NCBI GenBank assembly: GCA_035480855.1
Contig: DATIHJ010000019.1
Span: 80,096 to 144,095 of the forward strand
Source of the DNA: Patescibacteria group bacterium
GTDB taxonomy: Bacteria; Patescibacteriota; Saccharimonadia; Saccharimonadales; JANWIN01
Direction of reading: 5' to 3'
Length of the DNA: 64,000 bases
In this document: positions 9,633 through 40,442 of the stretch, piece after piece
How the letters are laid out: each line of letters starts with the position of its first letter
How positions within the stretch are numbered: position 1 is the stretch's first letter
The notes under the pieces: generated by a model
Databases searched by the model: none
Seen by the model: the letters and a program-made list of their open reading frames with translations, nothing else
Told to the model about the DNA's origin: nothing
Position numbers and translations under genes: made by a program

Positions 9633-10207
9633 TGGCTACTAAAACTATTAGCCAAGCTAGGCTAAAACACCAATTTGACAGTGAATTTGCTGCTGCCCTG
9701 CGTAGTGAACTCAAGCTAAAGAATATTCATGAGGTGCCTCGTCTTGAGAAGATTGTCATTAATACCGGACTTGGAAAAGCCAACGATGATAAGAAAATCA
9801 TGGAAGTTGCTACCAACACACTACGCAAAATTACAGGGCAACAACCCGTCCAGACAACTGCTCGTAAATCTATTGCGGCCTTTAAGCTTCGTGAGGGAAA
9901 CAAAATTGGGCTTAAAGTAACACTGCGTGACGAGCGTATGTATGAGTTTATGGACCGTCTAATTAACATCGTTCTTCCTCGCTTACGAGATTTTCACGGC
10001 GTTAGCTTAAAGTCTTTTGATGGCGGTGGTAACTACGCACTAGGCATATCCGACCAATCTGTTTTTCCGGAGCTTAGTTTTGAAGAAACTACATCCTCCC
10101 ACGGTCTACAAGTTATATTTGTTATAAAATCAAAGTCCTCTAAAGAATCTCAGGCACTACTAGAAAAGTTTGGAATGCCATTTGAGAAGGAAGGTAAGGA
10201 GAATTAA
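9632..10207 (+). CDS. rplE: 50S ribosomal protein L5
   Basis: Order and sequence ([12 protein letters not shown]...). Confidence 0.96.
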
Positions 10208-10209
10208 TC

Positions 10210-10479
10210 ATGGCAAAGAAATCTATTGTTATGCGTGATCTAAAGCGCCAGAAAATGATCAAGCAATATGCTGCTAAGCGTGCAGAACTCAAAGAACTTG
10301 GTGACCAGGAGGGATTACACAAACTTCCTCGCAACTCTTCGCCAACCCGTTGGAAGAATCGTTGCCAAGAAACAGGACGTGGCCGTGCATATATGCGTAC
10401 ATTTGGACTAAGTCGCATTTCCTTCCGAGAACATGCCAGTAAGGGTGAGATTCCTGGTGTAACAAAGGCGAGCTGGTAG
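10210..10479 (+). CDS. rpsN: 30S ribosomal protein S14, long zinc-independent (C-) type
   Basis: 89 aa. [25 protein letters not shown] retains only 1 of the 4 Cys of the Zn-ribbon form. Confidence 0.94.
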
Positions 10480-10484
10480 CAAAT

Positions 10485-10886
10485 ATGAGTAGTGTATCAA
10501 CCGATCCCATTGCCGACATGCTATCGCGTATTCGTAACGCCATAGCTGTGCATAAGCACGAAATAAACTTGCCACATTCTAAGGTTAAGGAAGCTGTTGC
10601 ACGCCTGCTTATGGACAATAACTTTATAGACAAAGTTGAAGTTAGCGATGCAGTCGTTGGCAAGACTCTTAATCTCATCTTGAATTCTCCTGAGCGCAAT
10701 GCTCGAATTACTGAAATCGTTCGTTTGAGCACTCCAGGACGCCGACATTATGCTAGCGTGGATGCTATTCCTACTGTCAAGCAGGGTCGTGGACTAGTAA
10801 TATTGTCTACCTCTAGAGGTGTTATGACTGGTAAGCAAGCCAAAGACCAGAATGTTGGTGGCGAATTAATTTGTAAGGTGTATTAA
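10485..10886 (+). CDS. rpsH: 30S ribosomal protein S8
   Basis: DPIADMLSRIRNA motif. Confidence 0.96.
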   Translation: MSSVSTDPIADMLSRIRNAIAVHKHEINLPHSKVKEAVARLLMDNNFIDKVEVSDAVVGKTLNLILNSPERNARITEIVRLSTPGRRHYASVDAIPTVKQGRGLVILSTSRGVMTGKQAKDQNVGGELICKVY

Positions 10887-12993: not shown

Positions 12994-14493
12994 GTGAACT
13001 GGAAGGTAATTGGGCAGTCAGTCAAAAACAGCGATATGCGCAAGCGCATACTGGCTGTCTTAGGCATGATCTTAGTTTTTCGTATCTTTGCGCACATTCC
13101 CGTACCGCTTAGTGACCCACAAACGCTCCAGCAAGTACTCAAAAATGTCTTTTCTTCTGCGCAAACCCCTCAACTTCTAAGCTTTATTAACGTATTGTCC
13201 GGCGGTGCGCTGGCCAATTTCTCCATTATGTTAGTTGGACTAGGGCCATACATTAACGCATCAATTATCATGCAGCTACTTACCCGGGCAATTCCTAAGC
13301 TTGAAGCACTAAATAATGAAGGTGAGTATGGCCGTAAGAAAATTAACCAGTACACCCGGCTGCTTACATTTCCCTTAGCTATAGTCCAATCTATAGGTGC
13401 CATTTACCTTGTACGCCAAACAGCCTCCAGTATTGGAGGACTAGGTGATATTACAGCCCATACCTCTCTAATGCAGTGGGTGCTGATGGTTGCAGCCTTA
13501 ACCGGTGGAGCGATGATTTTGATGTGGTTAGGAGAACTTATAACCGAACAGGGTATTGGAAACGGAATATCGCTAGTTATTACAGTTGGTATTGTCAGTA
13601 GTCTTCCAAAGACAATTGGGGCTGTGTTTAGTTCTATAACTGCTGGTGGACACAAGATGAAATTATTAGGTCAATCACTACCTTTTAGCTTAAGTGGGTT
13701 TCTCTACATTGTGCTGATCTTATCGATAGTAGTACTGGTAACTGTATTTATTGTGAAACTTAATGAAGCATCCAGGAATGTAACTGTTAACTACGCTAAA
13801 CGTGTGCAAGGCAACCGTACCTATGGTGGCGTAACTACAGTGTTGCCCGTTAAGCTCATCACAGCTGGTGTAATACCTATTATCTTTGCCGTAGCCTTCC
13901 TAAGCGTTCCAAGCTTTGCCGGGCAACTTATGTCAGGTGCCTCTAGTTTGCGGCTGCAAAACATTGGATCGCATTTGTTACGGCTGTTCCAAACGCCAAG
14001 CGCCACTACATTCCAACAGGGGGGCTGGCAGCCCTACCTGTATCCTCTGGTGTACTTCTTGCTCGTCGTGGTATTTACTTACTTTTATACGAGTGTAGCC
14101 TTTAACGCCAAAGAGATAGCAGAGAACCTACAAAAACAGGGAGGATTTATTGCAGATATCCGATCCGGTAAGCAGACAGAAAAGTATCTCAGCAGACTAG
14201 TAAATCGGCTGACTCTTTTTGGAGCTTTGGCTCTAGGATTCTTGGCGCTACTACCAATGGCAGCGCAGATATTTCTAAAGACTAACATTGCTATTGGCGG
14301 CACAAGTATTCTTATTTTGGTATCCGTTGCACTTGAAACACTGCGTCAAATTGAGTCACGTGCACTCATGGTCACATATGACCAATATAGCGAGCCAGAC
14401 TTCTTCTACGACTCGAGTGAGCCTGCCCAAGCCGGCACGGGAGCGCGCCGTTTAAGGTTCTTACCTGGCCGTGGCAAAAAATCTGATAGCTAA
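12994..14493 (+). CDS. secY: Preprotein translocase subunit SecY
   Basis: 499 aa, 10-TM-type profile, RKRILAVLGMILVFRIFAHIPVP N-terminus. GTG start after GGGGA. Confidence 0.95.
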   Translation: MNWKVIGQSVKNSDMRKRILAVLGMILVFRIFAHIPVPLSDPQTLQQVLKNVFSSAQTPQLLSFINVLSGGALANFSIMLVGLGPYINASIIMQLLTRAIPKLEALNNEGEYGRKKINQYTRLLTFPLAIVQSIGAIYLVRQTASSIGGLGDITAHTSLMQWVLMVAALTGGAMILMWLGELITEQGIGNGISLVITVGIVSSLPKTIGAVFSSITAGGHKMKLLGQSLPFSLSGFLYIVLILSIVVLVTVFIVKLNEASRNVTVNYAKRVQGNRTYGGVTTVLPVKLITAGVIPIIFAVAFLSVPSFAGQLMSGASSLRLQNIGSHLLRLFQTPSATTFQQGGWQPYLYPLVYFLLVVVFTYFYTSVAFNAKEIAENLQKQGGFIADIRSGKQTEKYLSRLVNRLTLFGALALGFLALLPMAAQIFLKTNIAIGGTSILILVSVALETLRQIESRALMVTYDQYSEPDFFYDSSEPAQAGTGARRLRFLPGRGKKSDS

Positions 14494-18788: not shown

Positions 18789-18842
18789 ATGTCCTGTGAC
18801 AAACAAGTATACGCAAAGAACGCCTTTGCCATCCGCAACTAG
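18789..18842 (+). CDS. Candidate leaderless leader peptide, 17 aa (MSCDKQVYAKNAFAIRN)
   Basis: Hand translation. The ATG lies 6 nt after the -10. The stop TAG (18840-42) abuts the antiterminator strand GCGGTT (18842-47). Confidence 0.35.
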   Translation: MSCDKQVYAKNAFAIRN

Positions 18843-35708: not shown

Positions 35709-36437
35709 GTGAAAGAGGGTACTGTGGGGGTATATAGCAACATACAAATACGTCAGGCAATGGAGGATGGTCATATTATTTGCACTCCTTTTGACCCTAA
35801 GCGCGTATCGCATGCCAGCCTTGATGTTACTCTGGGTTACTACTTCTACCGCATAGAGCGGATGAACGAGCGTAACATTTATAACCCGTTTGACCGTGAG
35901 GACGTGGAGCGCTATTTTGATGGCCCTTACAAGGCACAGCCTCACGCCGAGTGGTGTGACCAGAACGGTGTAAAGCCGCTGCTAGGCATTTCAGATAGTC
36001 ACCCAGTTATTGCACTTAAACCTGGAGAGCGTATTTTGGCACATACCCATGAGTTTTTTGGCATTAAGCCACCTGGTGCGTTTGATCTAAGAGCCCGCTC
36101 TAGTTGGGCACGCAACGGAGTCGCAGTGTGTTTTGATGCTGGCTGGGTTGATCCGGGCTACATTAATCGGCTTACCCTTGAAATCTATAACCTGAATCAC
36201 CGTGAAACAGTTGTATTGCCAGTGGGTGAGCGTATTGCCCAGGCAGTGTTTCACGAAACGGGTGAAGTTGAGGGTAATTACGGTTCAGGCCGGGACGAAG
36301 GTTTTAGCGGCAAGTACCAACGAGGCACAGACATAGATACAATCATCAAAACCTGGGCACCGGATATGATGCTACCTCAAGCATACAAAGACAAACGCAC
36401 ATTGCCACCTAAAATTGAAGGTATGGCGTATGAGTGA
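35709..36437 (+). CDS. dcd: dCTP deaminase family protein (long, 242 aa)
   Basis: RARSSWARNGVAV...GWVDPGYINRLTLEIYN core of the dCTP deaminase/dUTPase superfamily. GTG start after AGAGGG. Confidence 0.8.
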   Translation: MKEGTVGVYSNIQIRQAMEDGHIICTPFDPKRVSHASLDVTLGYYFYRIERMNERNIYNPFDREDVERYFDGPYKAQPHAEWCDQNGVKPLLGISDSHPVIALKPGERILAHTHEFFGIKPPGAFDLRARSSWARNGVAVCFDAGWVDPGYINRLTLEIYNLNHRETVVLPVGERIAQAVFHETGEVEGNYGSGRDEGFSGKYQRGTDIDTIIKTWAPDMMLPQAYKDKRTLPPKIEGMAYE

Positions 36438-38769
36438 GCCGCTTGGTAAATATATAGTCATCGAGGGTCCAGAGGGTGCGGGCAAGACAACCCAAATAAC
36501 ACTTCTGGCAGCCGGACTGCAAGCAGCCGGTTTGCCAGTACGTGTCCTTCGTGAGCCAGATAGCCAGAGCGATTTAACCGCCCGTAGCATACGTCAGCTG
36601 ACCCAAGACCCACGCTACCCCATGAATAGCCGCACAGAAGTGCTACTTTACAACGCTGCTCGTTCACAATCACTGGATATTATTCGTGCGTCTATTGCCC
36701 AAGGCATTATGTGCCTAGTAGATCGTAATTACCTGACCACATTGGCTATTCAGTATTACGGACGTGGAGATGTACCGGATTACGAAACTATAAACCAAAT
36801 TATAAGCTTTGCAGTCAACGGTATGGAGCCAGACCTTACGATTGTACTGGATGCACCCGTGCAAATGCTTCGCGAGCGCACCCAGACGCGGCGTACCAAG
36901 GAACGCTTTGACAATCTGGACGAAGCCTTTTTGGAACGAGTTAGGGCAGGGTACCTCTGGGAAGCCAAACAGCGAGGCTTACCGGTTGTATTTGCGACAG
37001 AGCCACCAGAAGAAGTCTTTAAGCAAGTATGGGAATTAGTCGCTCAAACACTAGCTATACGGGGCCCCAAAGCTCAGCAGGCCAGCGAGCCTGCATCGAT
37101 TAGAGACATCTTAGCGGAGCGCCAAACCACCATGCCACATTCTAAACAGATGGAAACTCAAGGAGAGGATGAAGCTTTAGTTATTAAAGACGACCAGGGT
37201 GTTTATAGCGTGACAGACGCTGGCCGCCGCGAGCTGGAACAAGCAGTCACGAATGTAGACGATGATGTTTATTCATTTACTGAGCGCCTGAGCCCAATGA
37301 CCATTGCAGCAGCCATGGCTCGACTCAGCCGTCGGGGCGATGATATGCGTATTACACTTTTGGATGAATTTATGGGCAAGGCCGGTAAGGACGAACAGCT
37401 TCTGCACCGCATTATTACCGCTTTTGGCGACGATTCTGTACAGCAGTTGGCAGGGCAGCACATAGTGGTAGAAAACGCTTCAAACTTGCTAACCAAAAAG
37501 TTGGAGTGGGGCAGGCTGGCCGCCTATTTGGAGCAGTCCACGCGTTACATCTACTTTGACCAAAAGGATAAAGACGGTAATTACAAATACTACGTGCCCA
37601 AACAGTTCAACAAAAAGACTGCTAGCTTGTACCGCAAAGCTATGGATGCAATATTTGACAGCTACTCAGATATGGTTCGAGAACTAACAACCTACATCCA
37701 GCAGCACTCAAACGTCCCCAAGAAGGAGCAAGACGGAGCCTGGCGGGCCGCCACCAGGGCCCAGGCCTGTGATGCAGTCCGCCCAGTGTTGCCGGTAGCG
37801 ACTAAGTCTACCGTAGGCATTTATGCCTCTGGACAGGCTCTAGAAAGCCTTATTATGCACTTACTAAGTGATGAGCTACCTGAAGCCCGTGAAACAGGCC
37901 AGAAAATGCTCGATGAAGCTCGCAAAACTATGGGCACATTCCTAGAGCGCGCCGACAAGCCTGACCGTGGCGGTGCAATGGTTGCCTACCGAGCCAATAC
38001 TGCAGCAGGAGTAAAAGATCTTGCGCATAAATATTTGCCAGATAATTATGGCCAACAAGATGCGCCGGTCACCCTCACAGCCGTTTGGCCCCGTAACGAG
38101 CTAGACCTAATACCAGATATGCTCTACGACCATAGCAATTTATCACTAGAAGAGTTAAAACAGCAGGTTAGCGCTTGGCCCTACAGCAGAAAAGAAAAAG
38201 TCTTTAAGGCATATGTTGGTGAGAGGCTTAACCGCCGCCATAAGCCAGGACGAGCATTAGAAAACGCCCACTATAGCTGGGATCTACTATGCGATTACGG
38301 CATTTTCCGCGACTTGCAGCGCCACCGCATAGTGGATGACCTAGAATGGCAGCTACTTACACCGCGCTATGGCTACGATGTACCGTCACTAATAGAAGAG
38401 GCTGGACTAACAGAGCAGTTCCAGGCTTGTTTTGATACAAGTCTTGAACTCTATAGCGCCCTGCAGGCTTCAGGGTACGAACTTGAGGCCCAATATGCTA
38501 CCTTGCTAGGCCACAAAATGCGTTGGAAGATTACCTATAACGCTCGTGAAGCCTTCCACTTGCACGAACTACGTACTACACCCCAGGGACACCCTGGCTA
38601 CCGCAAGCTGGTATTACAGATGCATGAAAAGCTAGCTGAGATCCACCCGATGTTGGCGGAAGCTATGAAATTTGTGAATCAAGACGAAGATCCGGCGTTA
38701 ACCCGTCTAGCAGCTGAGCGCTACACACAGTTCAAGCTAGAGCAGTTGGACAAAGCCAAATCTAAGTAG
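36430..38769 (+). CDS. thyX: Fusion protein: thymidylate kinase (N-terminal, about 210 aa) + tandem ThyX-like (FAD-dependent thymidylate synthase, Thy1) domains
   Basis: ATG 36430 overlaps the dcd stop (ATGAGTGA). Tmk motifs: IEGPEGAGKTTQ and DRNYLTTLAIQYYGRG. ThyX-like halves: EWGRLAAYLEQSTRY and FRDLQRHRIVDD...TPRY / NAREAFHLHELRTTPQGHPGYR. Confidence 0.75.
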   Translation: MSEPLGKYIVIEGPEGAGKTTQITLLAAGLQAAGLPVRVLREPDSQSDLTARSIRQLTQDPRYPMNSRTEVLLYNAARSQSLDIIRASIAQGIMCLVDRNYLTTLAIQYYGRGDVPDYETINQIISFAVNGMEPDLTIVLDAPVQMLRERTQTRRTKERFDNLDEAFLERVRAGYLWEAKQRGLPVVFATEPPEEVFKQVWELVAQTLAIRGPKAQQASEPASIRDILAERQTTMPHSKQMETQGEDEALVIKDDQGVYSVTDAGRRELEQAVTNVDDDVYSFTERLSPMTIAAAMARLSRRGDDMRITLLDEFMGKAGKDEQLLHRIITAFGDDSVQQLAGQHIVVENASNLLTKKLEWGRLAAYLEQSTRYIYFDQKDKDGNYKYYVPKQFNKKTASLYRKAMDAIFDSYSDMVRELTTYIQQHSNVPKKEQDGAWRAATRAQACDAVRPVLPVATKSTVGIYASGQALESLIMHLLSDELPEARETGQKMLDEARKTMGTFLERADKPDRGGAMVAYRANTAAGVKDLAHKYLPDNYGQQDAPVTLTAVWPRNELDLIPDMLYDHSNLSLEELKQQVSAWPYSRKEKVFKAYVGERLNRRHKPGRALENAHYSWDLLCDYGIFRDLQRHRIVDDLEWQLLTPRYGYDVPSLIEEAGLTEQFQACFDTSLELYSALQASGYELEAQYATLLGHKMRWKITYNAREAFHLHELRTTPQGHPGYRKLVLQMHEKLAEIHPMLAEAMKFVNQDEDPALTRLAAERYTQFKLEQLDKAKSK

Positions 38770-39193
38770 CCTGAGAATGTCCACCCAAAAGATATACCTT
38801 TGCATCAACCGGGGTGTGATCTTCGAGGCCAACACTACTATCATTTACCCGAAGATCAACTCTCCTGCCAAACATTTTTCCCGACCAAAGAATATTAATT
38901 CCATTTACATCTGCCGAAAGATCTGTTTGACCCCGAGAGCCAATTGATTCAACTAAGTGTTTATTCAGGAGTTGCGTATCTTCGTCAGATAACTTGACTC
39001 CCCATGCAATACAAGACCCATACTCTGTAGATTTGTCATCACGCATTTCAATTAACAATGCTTCTAGTCTGCGTTGTGCTAGGCCTATGTCTTCTGGAGT
39101 CAACGGACCTCTAAAAGCCAACGCTACAGAAATTTGAGCATCAAGCGGTAATAATCTATTTGGACCAAACTCAGGCCCTTCTGAATCTAACAT
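38762..39193 (-). CDS. Hypothetical 143-aa protein (orphan)
   Basis: SD GGAGA 6 nt upstream of the ATG. Tail-to-tail 8-nt overlap with thyX. No family recognised. Confidence 0.5.
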   Translation of the reverse strand: MLDSEGPEFGPNRLLPLDAQISVALAFRGPLTPEDIGLAQRRLEALLIEMRDDKSTEYGSCIAWGVKLSDEDTQLLNKHLVESIGSRGQTDLSADVNGINILWSGKMFGRRVDLRVNDSSVGLEDHTPVDAKVYLLGGHSQAT

Positions 39194-39223
39194 TTAATAT
39201 CTCCGAAGCAATTCAAAAATTTC

Positions 39224-39251
39224 AGATCCTTAGGATTAAGGATCTCTTTTT
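39224..39251. terminator. Perfect 9-bp palindromic hairpin with U tracts on both strands (bidirectional-terminator-like)
   Basis: AGATCCTTA-GGAT-TAAGGATCT (39224-45). The plus strand continues CTTTTTG. The minus strand continues GAAATTTTTG. Confidence 0.45.
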
Positions 39252-39308
39252 GTTTGCCTATATCTTATAGGTCTGCACGATTGAGTAATTTACTCTTCCC
39301 GAGTTATC

Positions 39309-39337
39309 TTGTCAACGTTTGACGACGGTGTTAAAAT
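39309..39337 (+). promoter_or_regulatory. Promoter TTGTCA-17 nt-TGtTAAAAT, 7 nt upstream of mini-ORF ATG 39345
   Basis: -35 at 39309-14, TG at 39329-30, -10 at 39332-37. Confidence 0.5.
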
Positions 39338-39344
39338 TACACGC

Positions 39345-39419
39345 ATGATTGGTTTGAACCGTTTGCAGCACCCCCTACTCGCTCTTACTGGGCTGTGCTT
39401 CATTACGGTTGAAGCCTGA
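39345..39419 (+). CDS. Candidate leaderless mini-ORF / leader peptide, 24 aa (MIGLNRLQHPLLALTGLCFITVEA)
   Basis: Hand translation. The last codons and the stop (39406-19) coincide with the 5' arm of the 13-bp helix. Confidence 0.4.
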   Translation: MIGLNRLQHPLLALTGLCFITVEA

Positions 39420-39485
39420 TCCGCACTACGCGGAATCGCACAGCTCAACCCAACAGGCTTCAACCGGAAGCTTGTCTTTAATTTT
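39406..39485 (+). promoter_or_regulatory. Alternative-helix switch: a 13-bp antiterminator helix versus an 8-bp terminator-like hairpin with a U-rich tail
   Basis: CGGTTGAAGCCTG (39406-18) pairs with CAGGCTTCAACCG (39454-66). Alternatively CAGGCTTC (39454-61) pairs with GAAGCTTG (39467-74), followed by TCTTTAATTTT. Confidence 0.45.
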
Positions 39486-39498
39486 AGGAGATTTAATT

Positions 39499-39717
39499 AT
39501 GAGTAAATTGCGCGGTGAATGGAGAGATATTATCTTAGATCCTTCAGATGCAGCTTATGGCCGCTGGAGGACTCACGACGGCCTTCCTCCAAACAGAAGT
39601 GAGATTGAGGGCGGACCACCTATTTTTAAGCGTTTGCCGCCTACAGAATTAGGGGCGACTTCAATACAGGCAGCTAGCATAGATGAAATAGAACAACCGC
39701 CCTATCAGCTTCCTTAG
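39499..39717 (+). CDS. Hypothetical Pro-rich 72-aa protein (orphan)
   Basis: ATG 39499 follows SD AGGAG (39486-90). The ORF track TTG 39409 lacks an SD and lies inside the leader helices. Confidence 0.5.
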   Translation: MSKLRGEWRDIILDPSDAAYGRWRTHDGLPPNRSEIEGGPPIFKRLPPTELGATSIQAASIDEIEQPPYQLP

Positions 39718-39720
39718 GGG

Positions 39721-39749
39721 TTGTATCTTACAAGTGTTTCTTGTAGAAT
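39721..39749 (+). promoter_or_regulatory. Candidate rplJL promoter (TTGTAT-17 nt-TAGAAT)
   Basis: -35 at 39721-26, -10 at 39744-49. Confidence 0.5.
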
Positions 39750-39831
39750 ATCTTTAGTTACCAAAGACAGCGACTGTGTAATAACTTAATTTGTCGCCGA
39801 GGTTTAAACAATACTTGTTTTCTCGTAATTT

Positions 39832-39857
39832 GTCTTTGGATGTCCAAAGACTTTTTT
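39832..39857 (+). terminator. Terminator-like hairpin inside the rplJ leader (L10-leader-type attenuator)
   Basis: GTCTTTGG-ATGT-CCAAAGAC followed by a T6 tract. An upstream copy of CCAAAGAC (39761-68) can pair with the 5' arm. Confidence 0.55.
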
Positions 39858-39914
39858 ATTACGGTAACTAAACCCGAGGTGGTCGATCCGGGCTAAACAA
39901 TAAGGAGACACACA

Positions 39915-40442
39915 GTGTCACTAACCAAAGATAAGAAACATGAAGTTGTTGACCAAATTGGTCAGTTACTAAGTGATGCCAAGCTAACAGTTGTTGCCAA
40001 ATACGAAGGTACAACCGTAAAAGCCATGCAGGACTTGCGTAAGCAAGCCAAAGACACCGGCACTATGGTGCATGTTGTCAAAAACCGCCTGGTTATCAAG
40101 GCAGTTGAGAGCAATGAAGCTCTAAAAAGTGTTGACACCAGCGCATTGCGCGGACAGTTACTTTACGCCTTTAACAGCGAGGATGAAGTAGCACCGGCGC
40201 AAGTTTTGGCCAACTTTGCAAAATTACAGCCACAACTACAGTTTGTAGGCGCGATTACAGCAGACGGGAAGTTCCTAGGCGCGGACGATGTTAAGGCGCT
40301 AGCTAGCTTGCCAAGCAAGGATCAGTTACGAGCCCAACTAGTCGGTACCATTGGTGCACCTCTCAGTGGCTTTGTTAATGTTCTATCGGGGAATTTGCGA
40401 GGTTTCCTGAACGTATTAAGTGCAAAAGCAGAATTAAGTTAA
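39915..40442 (+). CDS. rplJ: 50S ribosomal protein L10
   Basis: GTG start after SD AAGGAGA. Sequence and position upstream of rplL. Confidence 0.94.

Follow-up and report, generated by a model that had tools for sequence, protein, structure and literature searches.

We found that positions 39309-39498 of a 64,000-nucleotide (nt) stretch of DNA from a Saccharibacteria genome (Patescibacteria/Candidate Phyla Radiation, CPR; assembly GCA_035480855.1, contig DATIHJ010000019.1, positions 80,096 to 144,095 of the forward strand; this whole stretch is hereafter the window) quite probably hold a ribosome-mediated, or leader-peptide, transcription attenuator of the leucine (Leu) type that belongs to a conserved Saccharibacteria family. 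Judged by sequence comparison, this family has more than 120 homologues in genomes and metagenomes, has no counterpart in Rfam and most likely is a previously undescribed attenuator. An earlier, sequence-only reading of the stretch had proposed that a short hydrophobic open reading frame (ORF) attenuates the gene behind it in response to amino-acid supply or to a stalling compound. The comparative evidence supports translation-coupled attenuation of the downstream ORF by amino-acid supply, a signal to which the match between codons and enzymes points; a stalling compound is the less likely signal.

In the mechanism that we propose, a strong promoter would start the transcript at or beside the ATG of a 24-codon ORF (the mini-ORF), giving a leaderless mRNA. 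With charged Leu-tRNA plentiful, the ribosome would reach the stop codon on region 2 and cover this region (39406-18), leaving region 3 (39454-66) to pair with region 4 (39467-74), and transcription would terminate at the U tract. With no ribosome on the RNA, helix P1, the 1:2 helix and hairpin P3 would hold region 2 and the terminator would form, so that the gene would also be OFF. A ribosome delayed on Leu codons before or inside the 5' strand of P1 (39375-39395) would block P1 and region 1; region 2 would then be free to pair with region 3, the terminator would be pre-empted, and transcription would run into the Shine-Dalgarno (SD) sequence and the 72-amino-acid (aa) ORF. The family stop codon lies on or just after region 2, which fits masking of region 2 by the ribosome. 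We infer the transcription start site (TSS), translation of the mini-ORF, the positions at which ribosomes stall and the regulated read-through.

The sequence-only reading had described a promoter, the mini-ORF, two competing helices, an SD sequence and the 72-aa ORF, and on reading the window sequence we found all of them in place (Table 1). In a consensus scan of the window, the promoter scored 10/12 plus the extended TG. The mini-ORF ATG at 39345 lies 7 nt past the -10 hexamer and has no SD sequence before it. In the antiterminator, CGGTTGAAGCCTG (39406-18) is fully complementary to CAGGCTTCAACCG (39454-66) over 13 base pairs (bp), and this helix is the minimum free energy (MFE) fold of 39400-39490 (-30.6 kcal/mol, z = -4.3, with 0/200 shuffles as stable); a single-sequence z-score is by itself weak, and the recurrence of the whole arrangement in more than 120 independent sequences carries more weight. 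Since the antiterminator pairs 39406-18 with 39454-66, it uses the 5' arm of the terminator and the two helices are exclusive. The terminator scan found 39454-61 paired with GAAGCTTG (39467-74), 9 pairs in all including A39453-T39475, with the loop AACCG and the tail CTTTAATTTT; hence, an intrinsic terminator, a hairpin plus U tract at 39453-85, lies between the leader ORF and the gene. Among folds of 39345-39486, the terminator state had -47.7 kcal/mol and the enforced antiterminator -44.1 kcal/mol. Because these fold energies are close, the leader RNA looks bistable.

We tested the reading frame of the mini-ORF on 111 distinct copies of the element, the promoter on 107 copies and the codon profile on 114. 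The frame encoding G-L-C-F was open for 13 codons upstream in 111/111 copies, compared with 29 and 77 copies for the other frames. In 106/111 copies this frame also has an ATG 33-66 nt upstream and stays open after it, compared with 1 and 0 in the other frames. The predicted leader peptides have 24-31 aa and the consensus M-[SV]-F-N-x-x-K-Q-[LIV]4-6-[GS]-L-x-G-L-C-F-x-M-V-E-A, after which comes either the stop or another 2-7 residues; on the RNA, the stop codon immediately follows region 2 or lies up to ~20 nt beyond it. Frame conservation, together with the ATG at the predicted TSS, suggests that this short ORF is translated.

The start of the transcript was examined through the promoter. Homologues carry a TTGACA-like -35 element at about -37 from the ATG, and in 80/107 copies the ATG is preceded, at 5-12 nt, by the end of a TANNNT hexamer, compared with 9.5% at control positions. 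Hence, a promoter that places the start at or beside the mini-ORF ATG, as the sequence-only reading had it, is conserved. An SD sequence precedes the mini-ORF in only ~4 homologues. Because of the spacing between the -10 element and the ATG, the transcript probably starts at the ATG or 1-2 nt before it and would thus be a leaderless mRNA; by its promoter geometry, this is a start of the ilvBNC type, without a ribosome-binding site (RBS). A conserved 5' 'region 0' (UUCAACC, codons 3-5) that pairs with region 2 was considered and rejected, as TCAAC was present in only 18/107 copies, compared with 2.6% of controls; the UCAAC motif may be an added partner of region 2 before the ribosome loads. In the window and in its closest relative, locus L001, the start of the mini-ORF, GGUUUGAACCG (39351-61), pairs with region 2 (39406-16) within the MFE fold.

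Structure statistics were taken from A3, a model-based alignment of 101 sequences. The terminator was 97% paired, with heavy covariation of its basal pairs at columns 102-147 (CG53/UA20/AU11) and columns 101-148 (AU35/UA33/GU11/GC6), and three loci have a shifted terminator stem, CACYCGG...CCGRGUG. P1 was 98.9% paired, with compensatory pairs at columns 14-85 (GC88/AU3/CG2), 19-79 and 20-77. Both strands of P1 were altered together in L027 (GGGCUAUGU with ACAUUAGCCC), in L023 (GGGCUGUGU with ACACAAGCCC) and in the first L096 copy (GGGCUGCGC with GCGUAGCCC). RNAalifold independently recovered P1 and the base of the terminator. Pairing in the antiterminator, or 2:3 helix, reached 90.5%, and both partners changed together at columns 33-112 (GC81/GU10/AU6/UA1) and 34-111. 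The observed covariation score was reached by 0/500 shuffles. Hence, covariation supports the terminator, P1 and the antiterminator, and so the pair of helices on which the sequence-only reading was built. Its 13-bp antiterminator is present in the window but stands at the long end of the family, where the helix usually has 10-11 bp because the two outer pairs are weak.

P1, the 1:2 helix and P3 add to the picture drawn by the sequence-only reading. For the other two helices of the core, the alignment is informative to different degrees. The 1:2 helix, for which the core 39389-39449 was folded computationally, was 99.8% paired in A3, a figure that is uninformative because both arms were set by the search pattern. 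At P3, 95% of the 101 sequences have a hairpin of at least 4 bp, with a mean MFE of -5.6 kcal/mol compared with -1.4 kcal/mol for shuffles, and all 101 P3 segments differ in sequence. The fold predicted in the absence of translation is a three-way junction formed by P1, the 1:2 helix and P3, followed by the terminator.

The codons of the mini-ORF vary in a patterned way. Across the family, codons -8 to -5 relative to GLCF alternate between Leu and isoleucine/valine (Ile/Val). Leu occupies codon -4 in 100/114 copies and codon -2 in 84; Ile stands at codon -2 in 11, of which 10 are Ile/Val-type leaders and 1 is a Leu-type leader. Within the run, Leu is mostly written CUC (63%) and Val mostly GUC, and in the long ORFs of the window, that is in one genome, CUC (8%) and GUC (15%) are the rarest synonymous codons. 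The window mini-ORF has six Leu codons that use five triplets (TTG twice, CTA, CTC, CTT and CTG), including those at 39354 and 39363, which lie outside the candidate regulatory set in Table 1. In the window, the run reads LLAL plus L17. By these codons, we class the window leader as Leu-type. The Leu runs of the family, mostly CUC (CUCCUCCUC), are complementary to the downstream AGGAG SD sequence, and masking of the SD sequence by the CUC run is possible as an extra layer of control; the window run (39375-39386) has no CUCCU.

We typed the first downstream enzymes with Pfam and NCBIfam and then compared them with the leader type. HMGL-like enzymes resembling 2-isopropylmalate synthase (IPMS) were first in 10 loci, all with Leu-type leaders. 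The large subunit of biosynthetic acetolactate synthase (ALS; TIGR00118, above its cutoff) was first in 2 loci with Ile/Val-type leaders, and RidA in 1 locus of that type. In 3 loci with Ile-type runs (IIII, III), the first enzyme was a pyridoxal phosphate (PLP) enzyme of the PALP family whose best match, below curated cutoffs, was threonine ammonia-lyase. Hence, IPMS-like enzymes follow Leu-type leaders in 10/10 loci, and ALS, threonine-dehydratase-like enzymes or RidA follow Ile/Val-type leaders in 6/6. Longer cargos were also seen: ALS-RidA-IlvA, IPMS-like-RidA-IlvA, and a small ORF followed by ALS, (IlvN-like) and IlvA.

Corroborating this split, locus L096 carries two tandem modules (at 10038-10155 and 10459-10575 of that locus), each with an attenuator, a small ORF and its own promoter. 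One is Leu-type (..SILSLLLLSLMGLRF..) and the other Ile/Val-type (..SIIAVIIVLGIRGLCF..); their RNA cores are nearly alike, and the codon run is the main difference between them. Switching of the codon run together with the downstream enzyme is what marks a leader-peptide attenuator.

We compared window positions 39194-39742 with 80 rplJ loci from species-representative genomes. In the closest relative, L001, whose L10 protein is 97% identical, the region aligns only over 39308-39505, at 88%, and in seven more distant Saccharibacteria it aligns over ~39371-39507, at 71-77%. Direct comparison of the window with L001 gave three kept blocks, namely thyX (88%), 39308-39505 (88%) and the L10 leader plus rplJ (91%); the region of a 143-aa ORF upstream of the element and the 72-aa ORF have no counterpart in L001. 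Because the element aligns with L001 while the neighbouring ORFs do not, selection appears to act on the leader, with the gene behind it being replaced.

Copies of the element were present in ~10/35 of the Saccharibacteria species rplJ loci, and a metagenome scan with a pattern of the invariant blocks gave at least 120 stretches, compared with ~1-2 occurrences expected by chance in our rough estimate. Scored with covariance model R1, copies found by the pattern reached 60-113 bits, and the model also found L027, which is outside the pattern, and the second, tandem copy in L096. A loose regular expression found no diverged copies in the other 25 Saccharibacteria rplJ loci, its match in L003 being coding sequence. 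Rfam 15 gave no match at 39300-39500, with the whole window searched at gathering thresholds and 39150-39950 at E <= 10, nor did it match the homologous elements in 8 loci; its only matches, elsewhere, were the L10 leader and tRNAs. Neither a tRNA nor a tmRNA was detected at the element by ARAGORN. The layout of promoter plus terminator also brought up a small RNA gene of the signal recognition particle (SRP) or 6S type, which was dropped given the conserved ORF and the gene with an SD sequence after the terminator.

Within the window, the covariance-model search found only one copy of the family, at 87 bits. Hence, the other leaderless mini-ORF leaders that the sequence-only reading had listed for this stretch are not paralogues of the element. 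The match of the motif search at 13619 was rejected as a paralogue, as it lies inside an ORF. In a crude scan of promoter-to-ATG spacing, two more short ORFs, of 17 and 27 codons (18789-18842 on the plus strand and 30823-30740 on the minus strand), begin 5-6 nt after a promoter-like site; they are outside the attenuator RNA family and are perhaps the mini-ORF leaders of the earlier reading.

The gene behind the leader is in most cases small. In the window and in ~80 other loci, the first gene is an orphan-like ORF of 45-100 aa. For the 72-aa ORF of the window, a word-index search among 5.8e9 proteins returned only the ORF itself, and Pfam gave no match. A full HMMER scan of 1.84e9 cluster representatives likewise returned only the ORF itself, bar one match that we distrust: this sole non-self match covers 24 residues of P0002 (1441 aa, residues 491-513) with E = 1.7e-5 in 3 stretches, and is probably a coincidence of low complexity or repeats. 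At the position of the 72-aa ORF, L001 has an unrelated 82-aa ORF (39506-39755 compared with L001 1938-2279) between flanks that are 88-91% identical, with the breakpoints of the replacement at the ORF start codon and at the L10 leader. On this comparison, the small ORF seems to behave like a swap-in cassette.

Across the family, the SD sequence and ATG stand at a fixed distance after the U tract. Because the SD sequence directly follows the U tract, with no space for a second promoter, the downstream gene can be expressed only by read-through. Products of the regulated genes synthesize the sensed amino acid in the loci with IPMS-like enzymes, ALS, IlvA-like enzymes or RidA, but not in the window or in the ~80 small-ORF loci. 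We ruled out that the small ORFs are decayed remnants of leuA or ilv genes, since a small ORF precedes intact ALS/IlvA in L149, L116 and L101.

The composition of the small ORFs is distinctive. The 79 distinct small ORFs are acidic, with a mean net charge of -4.9, and hypervariable, as 50 of them are singletons at blastp 1e-3; they are poor in lysine (2.1%) and in Leu. After Ile/Val-type leaders they contain 2.0% Ile, compared with 4.9% in the long ORFs of the same loci (ratio 0.43); after Leu-type leaders the Ile ratio is 1.25, and the difference between types has p = 3e-5. Their Leu content is about half the background behind both leader types. Avoidance of an amino acid is expected in cargo whose protein is meant to be produced during shortage of that amino acid. 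Nine small ORFs (in the L081-L200 set; for example L103, L109, L145 and L199) have the motif [VI]PY.G.E[SD] and a C-terminal (N/D)[LWM]PA.

Several points weigh against a Leu-responsive attenuator, and some concern how the evidence was gathered. Most homologues were collected with a pattern that fixes much of regions 1, 2 and 3, which biases ascertainment; 7/12 antiterminator pairs and the whole 1:2 helix are invariant by design, because the search pattern fixed those positions. The enzyme counts ignore phylogeny, and by our estimate represent ~7 and ~5 independent lineages. The source organisms are uncultured and known as metagenome-assembled genomes (MAGs). The division between Leu and Ile/Val is not absolute, because in L149 a Leu-type leader precedes a small ORF, ALS and IlvA. 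The window itself is not an ideal case either: just two Leu codons stand side by side in its run (LLAL), the regulated gene, an orphan, has no link to Leu metabolism, and this 72-aa ORF has 8% Leu and so is not Leu-poor.

Two further points touch on mechanism. The switching codons lie 13-24 nt before P1. Even with its A site on the last of them, 13-15 nt before P1, a ribosome reaches only about the first base of P1, if it covers ~12-13 nt of mRNA 3' of the A site, as we estimate. Leu/Ile codons further on, at -4, -2 and +1, have a better position for opening P1, so productive stalling may depend on them; a stalled ribosome that left P1 closed would lead to termination. The core is also much more conserved than is usual for attenuators, and the changes of L027 and L023 in GGGCUGUGCUUC are all synonymous. 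With such conservation, the peptide may have an additional role, or a factor may bind.

That conservation is central to the reading in which the three-way junction of P1, the 1:2 helix and P3 senses a metabolite or a protein, as a riboswitch or a protein-dependent antiterminator, with the ORF incidental or secondary. About 40 nt are near-invariant (GGGCUGUGCUUCA, GGUUGAAGCC, GCACAGCCC and GGCUUCAACC) though the L10 proteins of the loci are just 55-75% identical, a pattern seen more often in aptamers or protein-binding sites than in attenuators; the junction closed by P1 includes a variable P3, and the geometry of ribosome stalling is borderline. A sensor of this kind, however, would leave unexplained why an ORF is kept in one frame in 106/111 copies with its ATG at the predicted TSS, why the stop codon sits on region 2, and why the Leu and Ile/Val runs track the enzyme and the composition of the cargo. 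The tandem copies of L096, with a near-identical RNA core and different codon runs, also speak against it, as does the lack of a match to an Rfam family. High conservation of the core is explicable in an attenuator because its segments pair with two partners each and also code. We regard the junction sensor as quite unlikely. In another alternative, which the sequence-only reading had raised for a membrane peptide, the mini-ORF product is itself functional, as a small hydrophobic peptide of membrane, toxin or signal type; the hairpin would then mainly be its own terminator, and the Leu, Ile and Val swaps would be conservative, since membrane helices accept any of these residues. Conservation extends over the whole length of the peptide, and the nucleotide changes of L027 and L023 in GLCF are synonymous. 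Yet its hydrophobic stretch has only ~10-15 residues, with proline inside Ile-type runs (IIIIPDIP, IIIPGIH), and we found neither a membrane-spanning hydrophobic helix nor selection at the peptide level in place of the RNA level, as would be expected of a membrane peptide or a type I toxin, though no search for an antisense partner was made. The L002 frame shifts past CF and its peptide finishes with SNG, cysteine gives way to arginine in the first L096 copy with the RNA pair kept, and the C-terminal extensions range from 0 to 7 residues. The choice of Leu or Ile/Val follows the downstream enzyme and is not random, and the terminator stands directly before an SD sequence and a promoterless gene, with a covarying alternative helix that competes with it. 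A functional peptide explains these data less well and is unlikely as the main function; a second role of the peptide is possible.

The near-invariance of GLCF and VEA right before the stop codon could also mark an arrest peptide, in which GLCFxMVEA stalls the ribosome at or near the stop on a small molecule such as an antibiotic or a free amino acid, as in ErmCL and TnaC. Upstream ORFs (uORFs) that sense ribosome-targeting compounds by stalling do exist (PMC12121999, PMC9226507). The invariance of GLCF/MVEA, however, is accounted for by RNA constraints, since the very nucleotides that encode these residues build P1, region 1 and region 2; in the first L096 copy, R replaces C with a compensating RNA change. 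A ribosome halted at the stop would lie over region 2 and promote termination, a strange logic for inducing a gene; the cargo consists of branched-chain amino-acid enzymes or small ORFs and never of a resistance gene, and both the switching between Leu and Ile/Val and the depletion in the cargo would be unexplained. An arrest peptide is in our view very unlikely. There is hardly any case for the TTG-initiated 102-aa ORF (39409-39717), which the sequence-only reading had named as a competing product and which would place the helices within a coding region. Its frame is open from 39409 in the window, but in only 22/111 homologues does the corresponding frame reach back to region 2, the median upstream extension being 24 nt. 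It is not conserved in L001 and has no protein homologue, and the SD sequence and ATG follow the U tract at the distance fixed in the family. For the 72-aa hypothetical protein, the start should be annotated at 39499 and not at the TTG of the 102-aa frame. Leader-peptide attenuation by Leu supply is thus the reading that we prefer for the element.

The element also has a constant address. Where the flank was long enough, nearly every copy follows tmk-thyX and precedes rplJ-rplL by 0.4-7 kb, in the same orientation. Hence, from the flanks of nearly every such locus, the element holds one fixed genomic slot between tmk-thyX and the L10 leader/rplJ. In the window, the 784-aa ORF upstream apparently fuses a thymidylate kinase, with an N-terminal GPEGAGKTT P-loop, with a ThyX-like C-terminal part, as read from its translation; the tmk-thyX fusion is kept upstream of the element in most loci.

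Downstream, the terminator scan detected no terminator between 39717 and the L10 leader, and because of this, read-through from the attenuator could add to rplJL transcription. We rejected the attenuator as a required rplJL promoter, since the L10 leader has its own conserved promoter upstream in 24/24 loci. The distance from this promoter to the L10-leader motif GTTACCAAAGACAG behind it is constant; the promoter reads TTGAC...TAtaaT in related loci and TTGTAT-17-TAGAAT at 39721-49 in the window. The 143-aa ORF on the minus strand, also absent from L001, has a promoter-like site of its own (TTGACA at 39315-10, TAAATT at 39292-87). The palindromic TTGTCAA is common to this site and the leader -35 element, and the promoters of the leader and of the 143-aa ORF therefore stand back to back. 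The 5' untranslated region (UTR) of the 143-aa ORF contains a perfect 9-bp hairpin (39224-39245) with T runs on both strands.

Table 1. Parts of the attenuator element and its neighbours in the window
Feature	Coordinates	Strand	Remarks
Sigma-70-type promoter	39309..39337	+	-35 TTGTCA 39309-14; 17-nt spacer; extended -10 TGtTAAAAT 39329-37 (hexamer 39332-37)
Leader mini-ORF MIGLNRLQHPLLALTGLCFITVEA	39345..39419	+	24 codons plus stop TGA 39417-19; ORF listing
Candidate regulatory Leu codons	39375..39395	+	L11 CTA, L12 CTC, L14 CTT, L17 CTG; family codon profile
P1 5' strand GGGCUGUGC	39390..39398	+	pairs with 39438-46; also codes for G-L-C
Region 1 GCUUCA	39397..39402	+	pairs with UGAAGC 39410-15 as 1:2 helix (P2), the predicted anti-antiterminator
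Region 2 CGGUUGAAGCCUG	39406..39418	+	5' arm of antiterminator; carries the last mini-ORF codons and stop
P3 small hairpin	39420..39434	+	UCCGC, loop ACUAC, GCGGA; position kept, sequence not
P1 3' strand GCACAGCUC	39438..39446	+	pairs with 39390-98
Region 3 CAGGCUUCAACCG	39454..39466	+	used by antiterminator (with region 2) and terminator (with region 4)
Region 4 GAAGCUUG and U-rich tail TCTTTAATTTT	39467..39485	+	region 4 at 39467-74; intrinsic terminator with region 3
Regulated gene	39486..39717	+	SD AGGAG 39486-90; 72-aa ORF from ATG 39499 to 39717; orphan
ORF presumed dCTP-deaminase-like	35709-36437	+	read from translation
784-aa ORF presumed Tmk-ThyX-like	36415-38769	+	read from translation
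143-aa ORF	38762-39193	-	without Pfam family
L10 leader RF00557	39743-39867	+	64.6 bits
rplJ	start 39915	+	ORF listing
rplL	start 40456	+	ORF listing

Members of the CPR are thought to depend on hosts for amino acids, and their gene regulation is almost unknown. Our literature searches turned up no account of an attenuator or leader peptide from Saccharibacteria or Patescibacteria, and as far as they show, this would be the first leader-peptide attenuation described for the CPR. The family can be modelled, added to RNA databases and used for annotation of Saccharibacteria. Its Leu and Ile/Val versions occur naturally, at times as tandem copies in a single genome, and have clear ON and OFF folds; the family offers a readout of the amino acids that these episymbionts sense. 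The family also points to small, fast-changing genes that are missed or called orphans and that are apparently induced by amino-acid shortage, judging from sequence. A further proposal, conceivable yet rather doubtful, is that where the ilv/leu genes have been lost, as at the window locus, the leader serves as a stand-alone sensor of Leu/Ile-tRNA charging and switches on a rapidly replaced, acidic, probably disordered mini-protein that is translatable under that starvation, being poor in Ile after Ile-type leaders and poor in Leu generally. If so, the thyX-rplJ slot would be a starvation-induced locus of hypervariable cassettes, in these amino-acid-dependent episymbionts the mini-protein might target either the host or the ribosome supply of the cell itself, and, as a further layer, the invariant GLCFxMVEA nascent peptide might tune termination or stalling.

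Leader-peptide attenuation is a textbook mechanism, and the best-known examples share part of their logic with the element. Like the enterobacterial leu, ilvGMEDA and ilvBN leaders (leuL, ilvL and ivbL; Rfam Leu_leader) and like trp, the element appears to follow the 1:2/2:3/3:4 logic, with runs of codons for the end product, rare Leu codons (CUC here; CUA in the E. coli leu leader) and a terminator directly before the genes. Unlike the element, the enterobacterial leaders have an SD sequence and a 5' UTR, a stop codon between regions 1 and 2 and always a pathway operon as cargo, and they have no detectable sequence kinship with it (cmscan, E <= 10). In mycobacteria, leaderless polycysteine short ORFs are cysteine-responsive attenuators. 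These are similar in that a leaderless short ORF whose codon content senses one amino acid controls downstream genes, and they differ in amino acid, phylum and sequence. The L10 leader (RF00557) is likewise a terminator-based leader, in the same intergenic stretch as the element; unlike the element, it is separate, senses protein and has its own conserved promoter. Attenuation that depends on L10(L12)4 is described for B. subtilis (PMC4538822).

The closest parallel is the ilvBNC leader of C. glutamicum (IlvL MTIIRLVVVTARRLP; Morbach et al. 2000), for which PMC11857589 gives a TSS one nucleotide from the leader start codon, an arrangement established by experiment, no RBS, and three hairpins that act as anti-antiterminator, antiterminator and terminator; a related ilvB-II/uORF motif appears in PMC10272879. 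Like ilvBNC, the Saccharibacteria element has a leader rich in branched-chain codons, a leaderless geometry (predicted here) and three competing hairpins, and ilvBNC controls acetolactate synthase, which is also the cargo in L100 and L165. Unlike ilvBNC, to which it has no similarity in sequence or by Rfam model, the element adds P1 and a variable P3 in a three-way junction and has its stop codon on region 2; it also has separate Leu-type and Ile/Val-type versions, and it mostly controls a small orphan ORF and not a biosynthetic operon. Its unusual traits are the P1/P3 three-way junction, the fixed slot with interchangeable cargo, and its retention before orphan mini-genes where biosynthetic genes are absent, as in the window. 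By analogy with these systems, we interpret the element as a new sequence family of a known mechanism that most resembles the leaderless ilvBNC attenuator.

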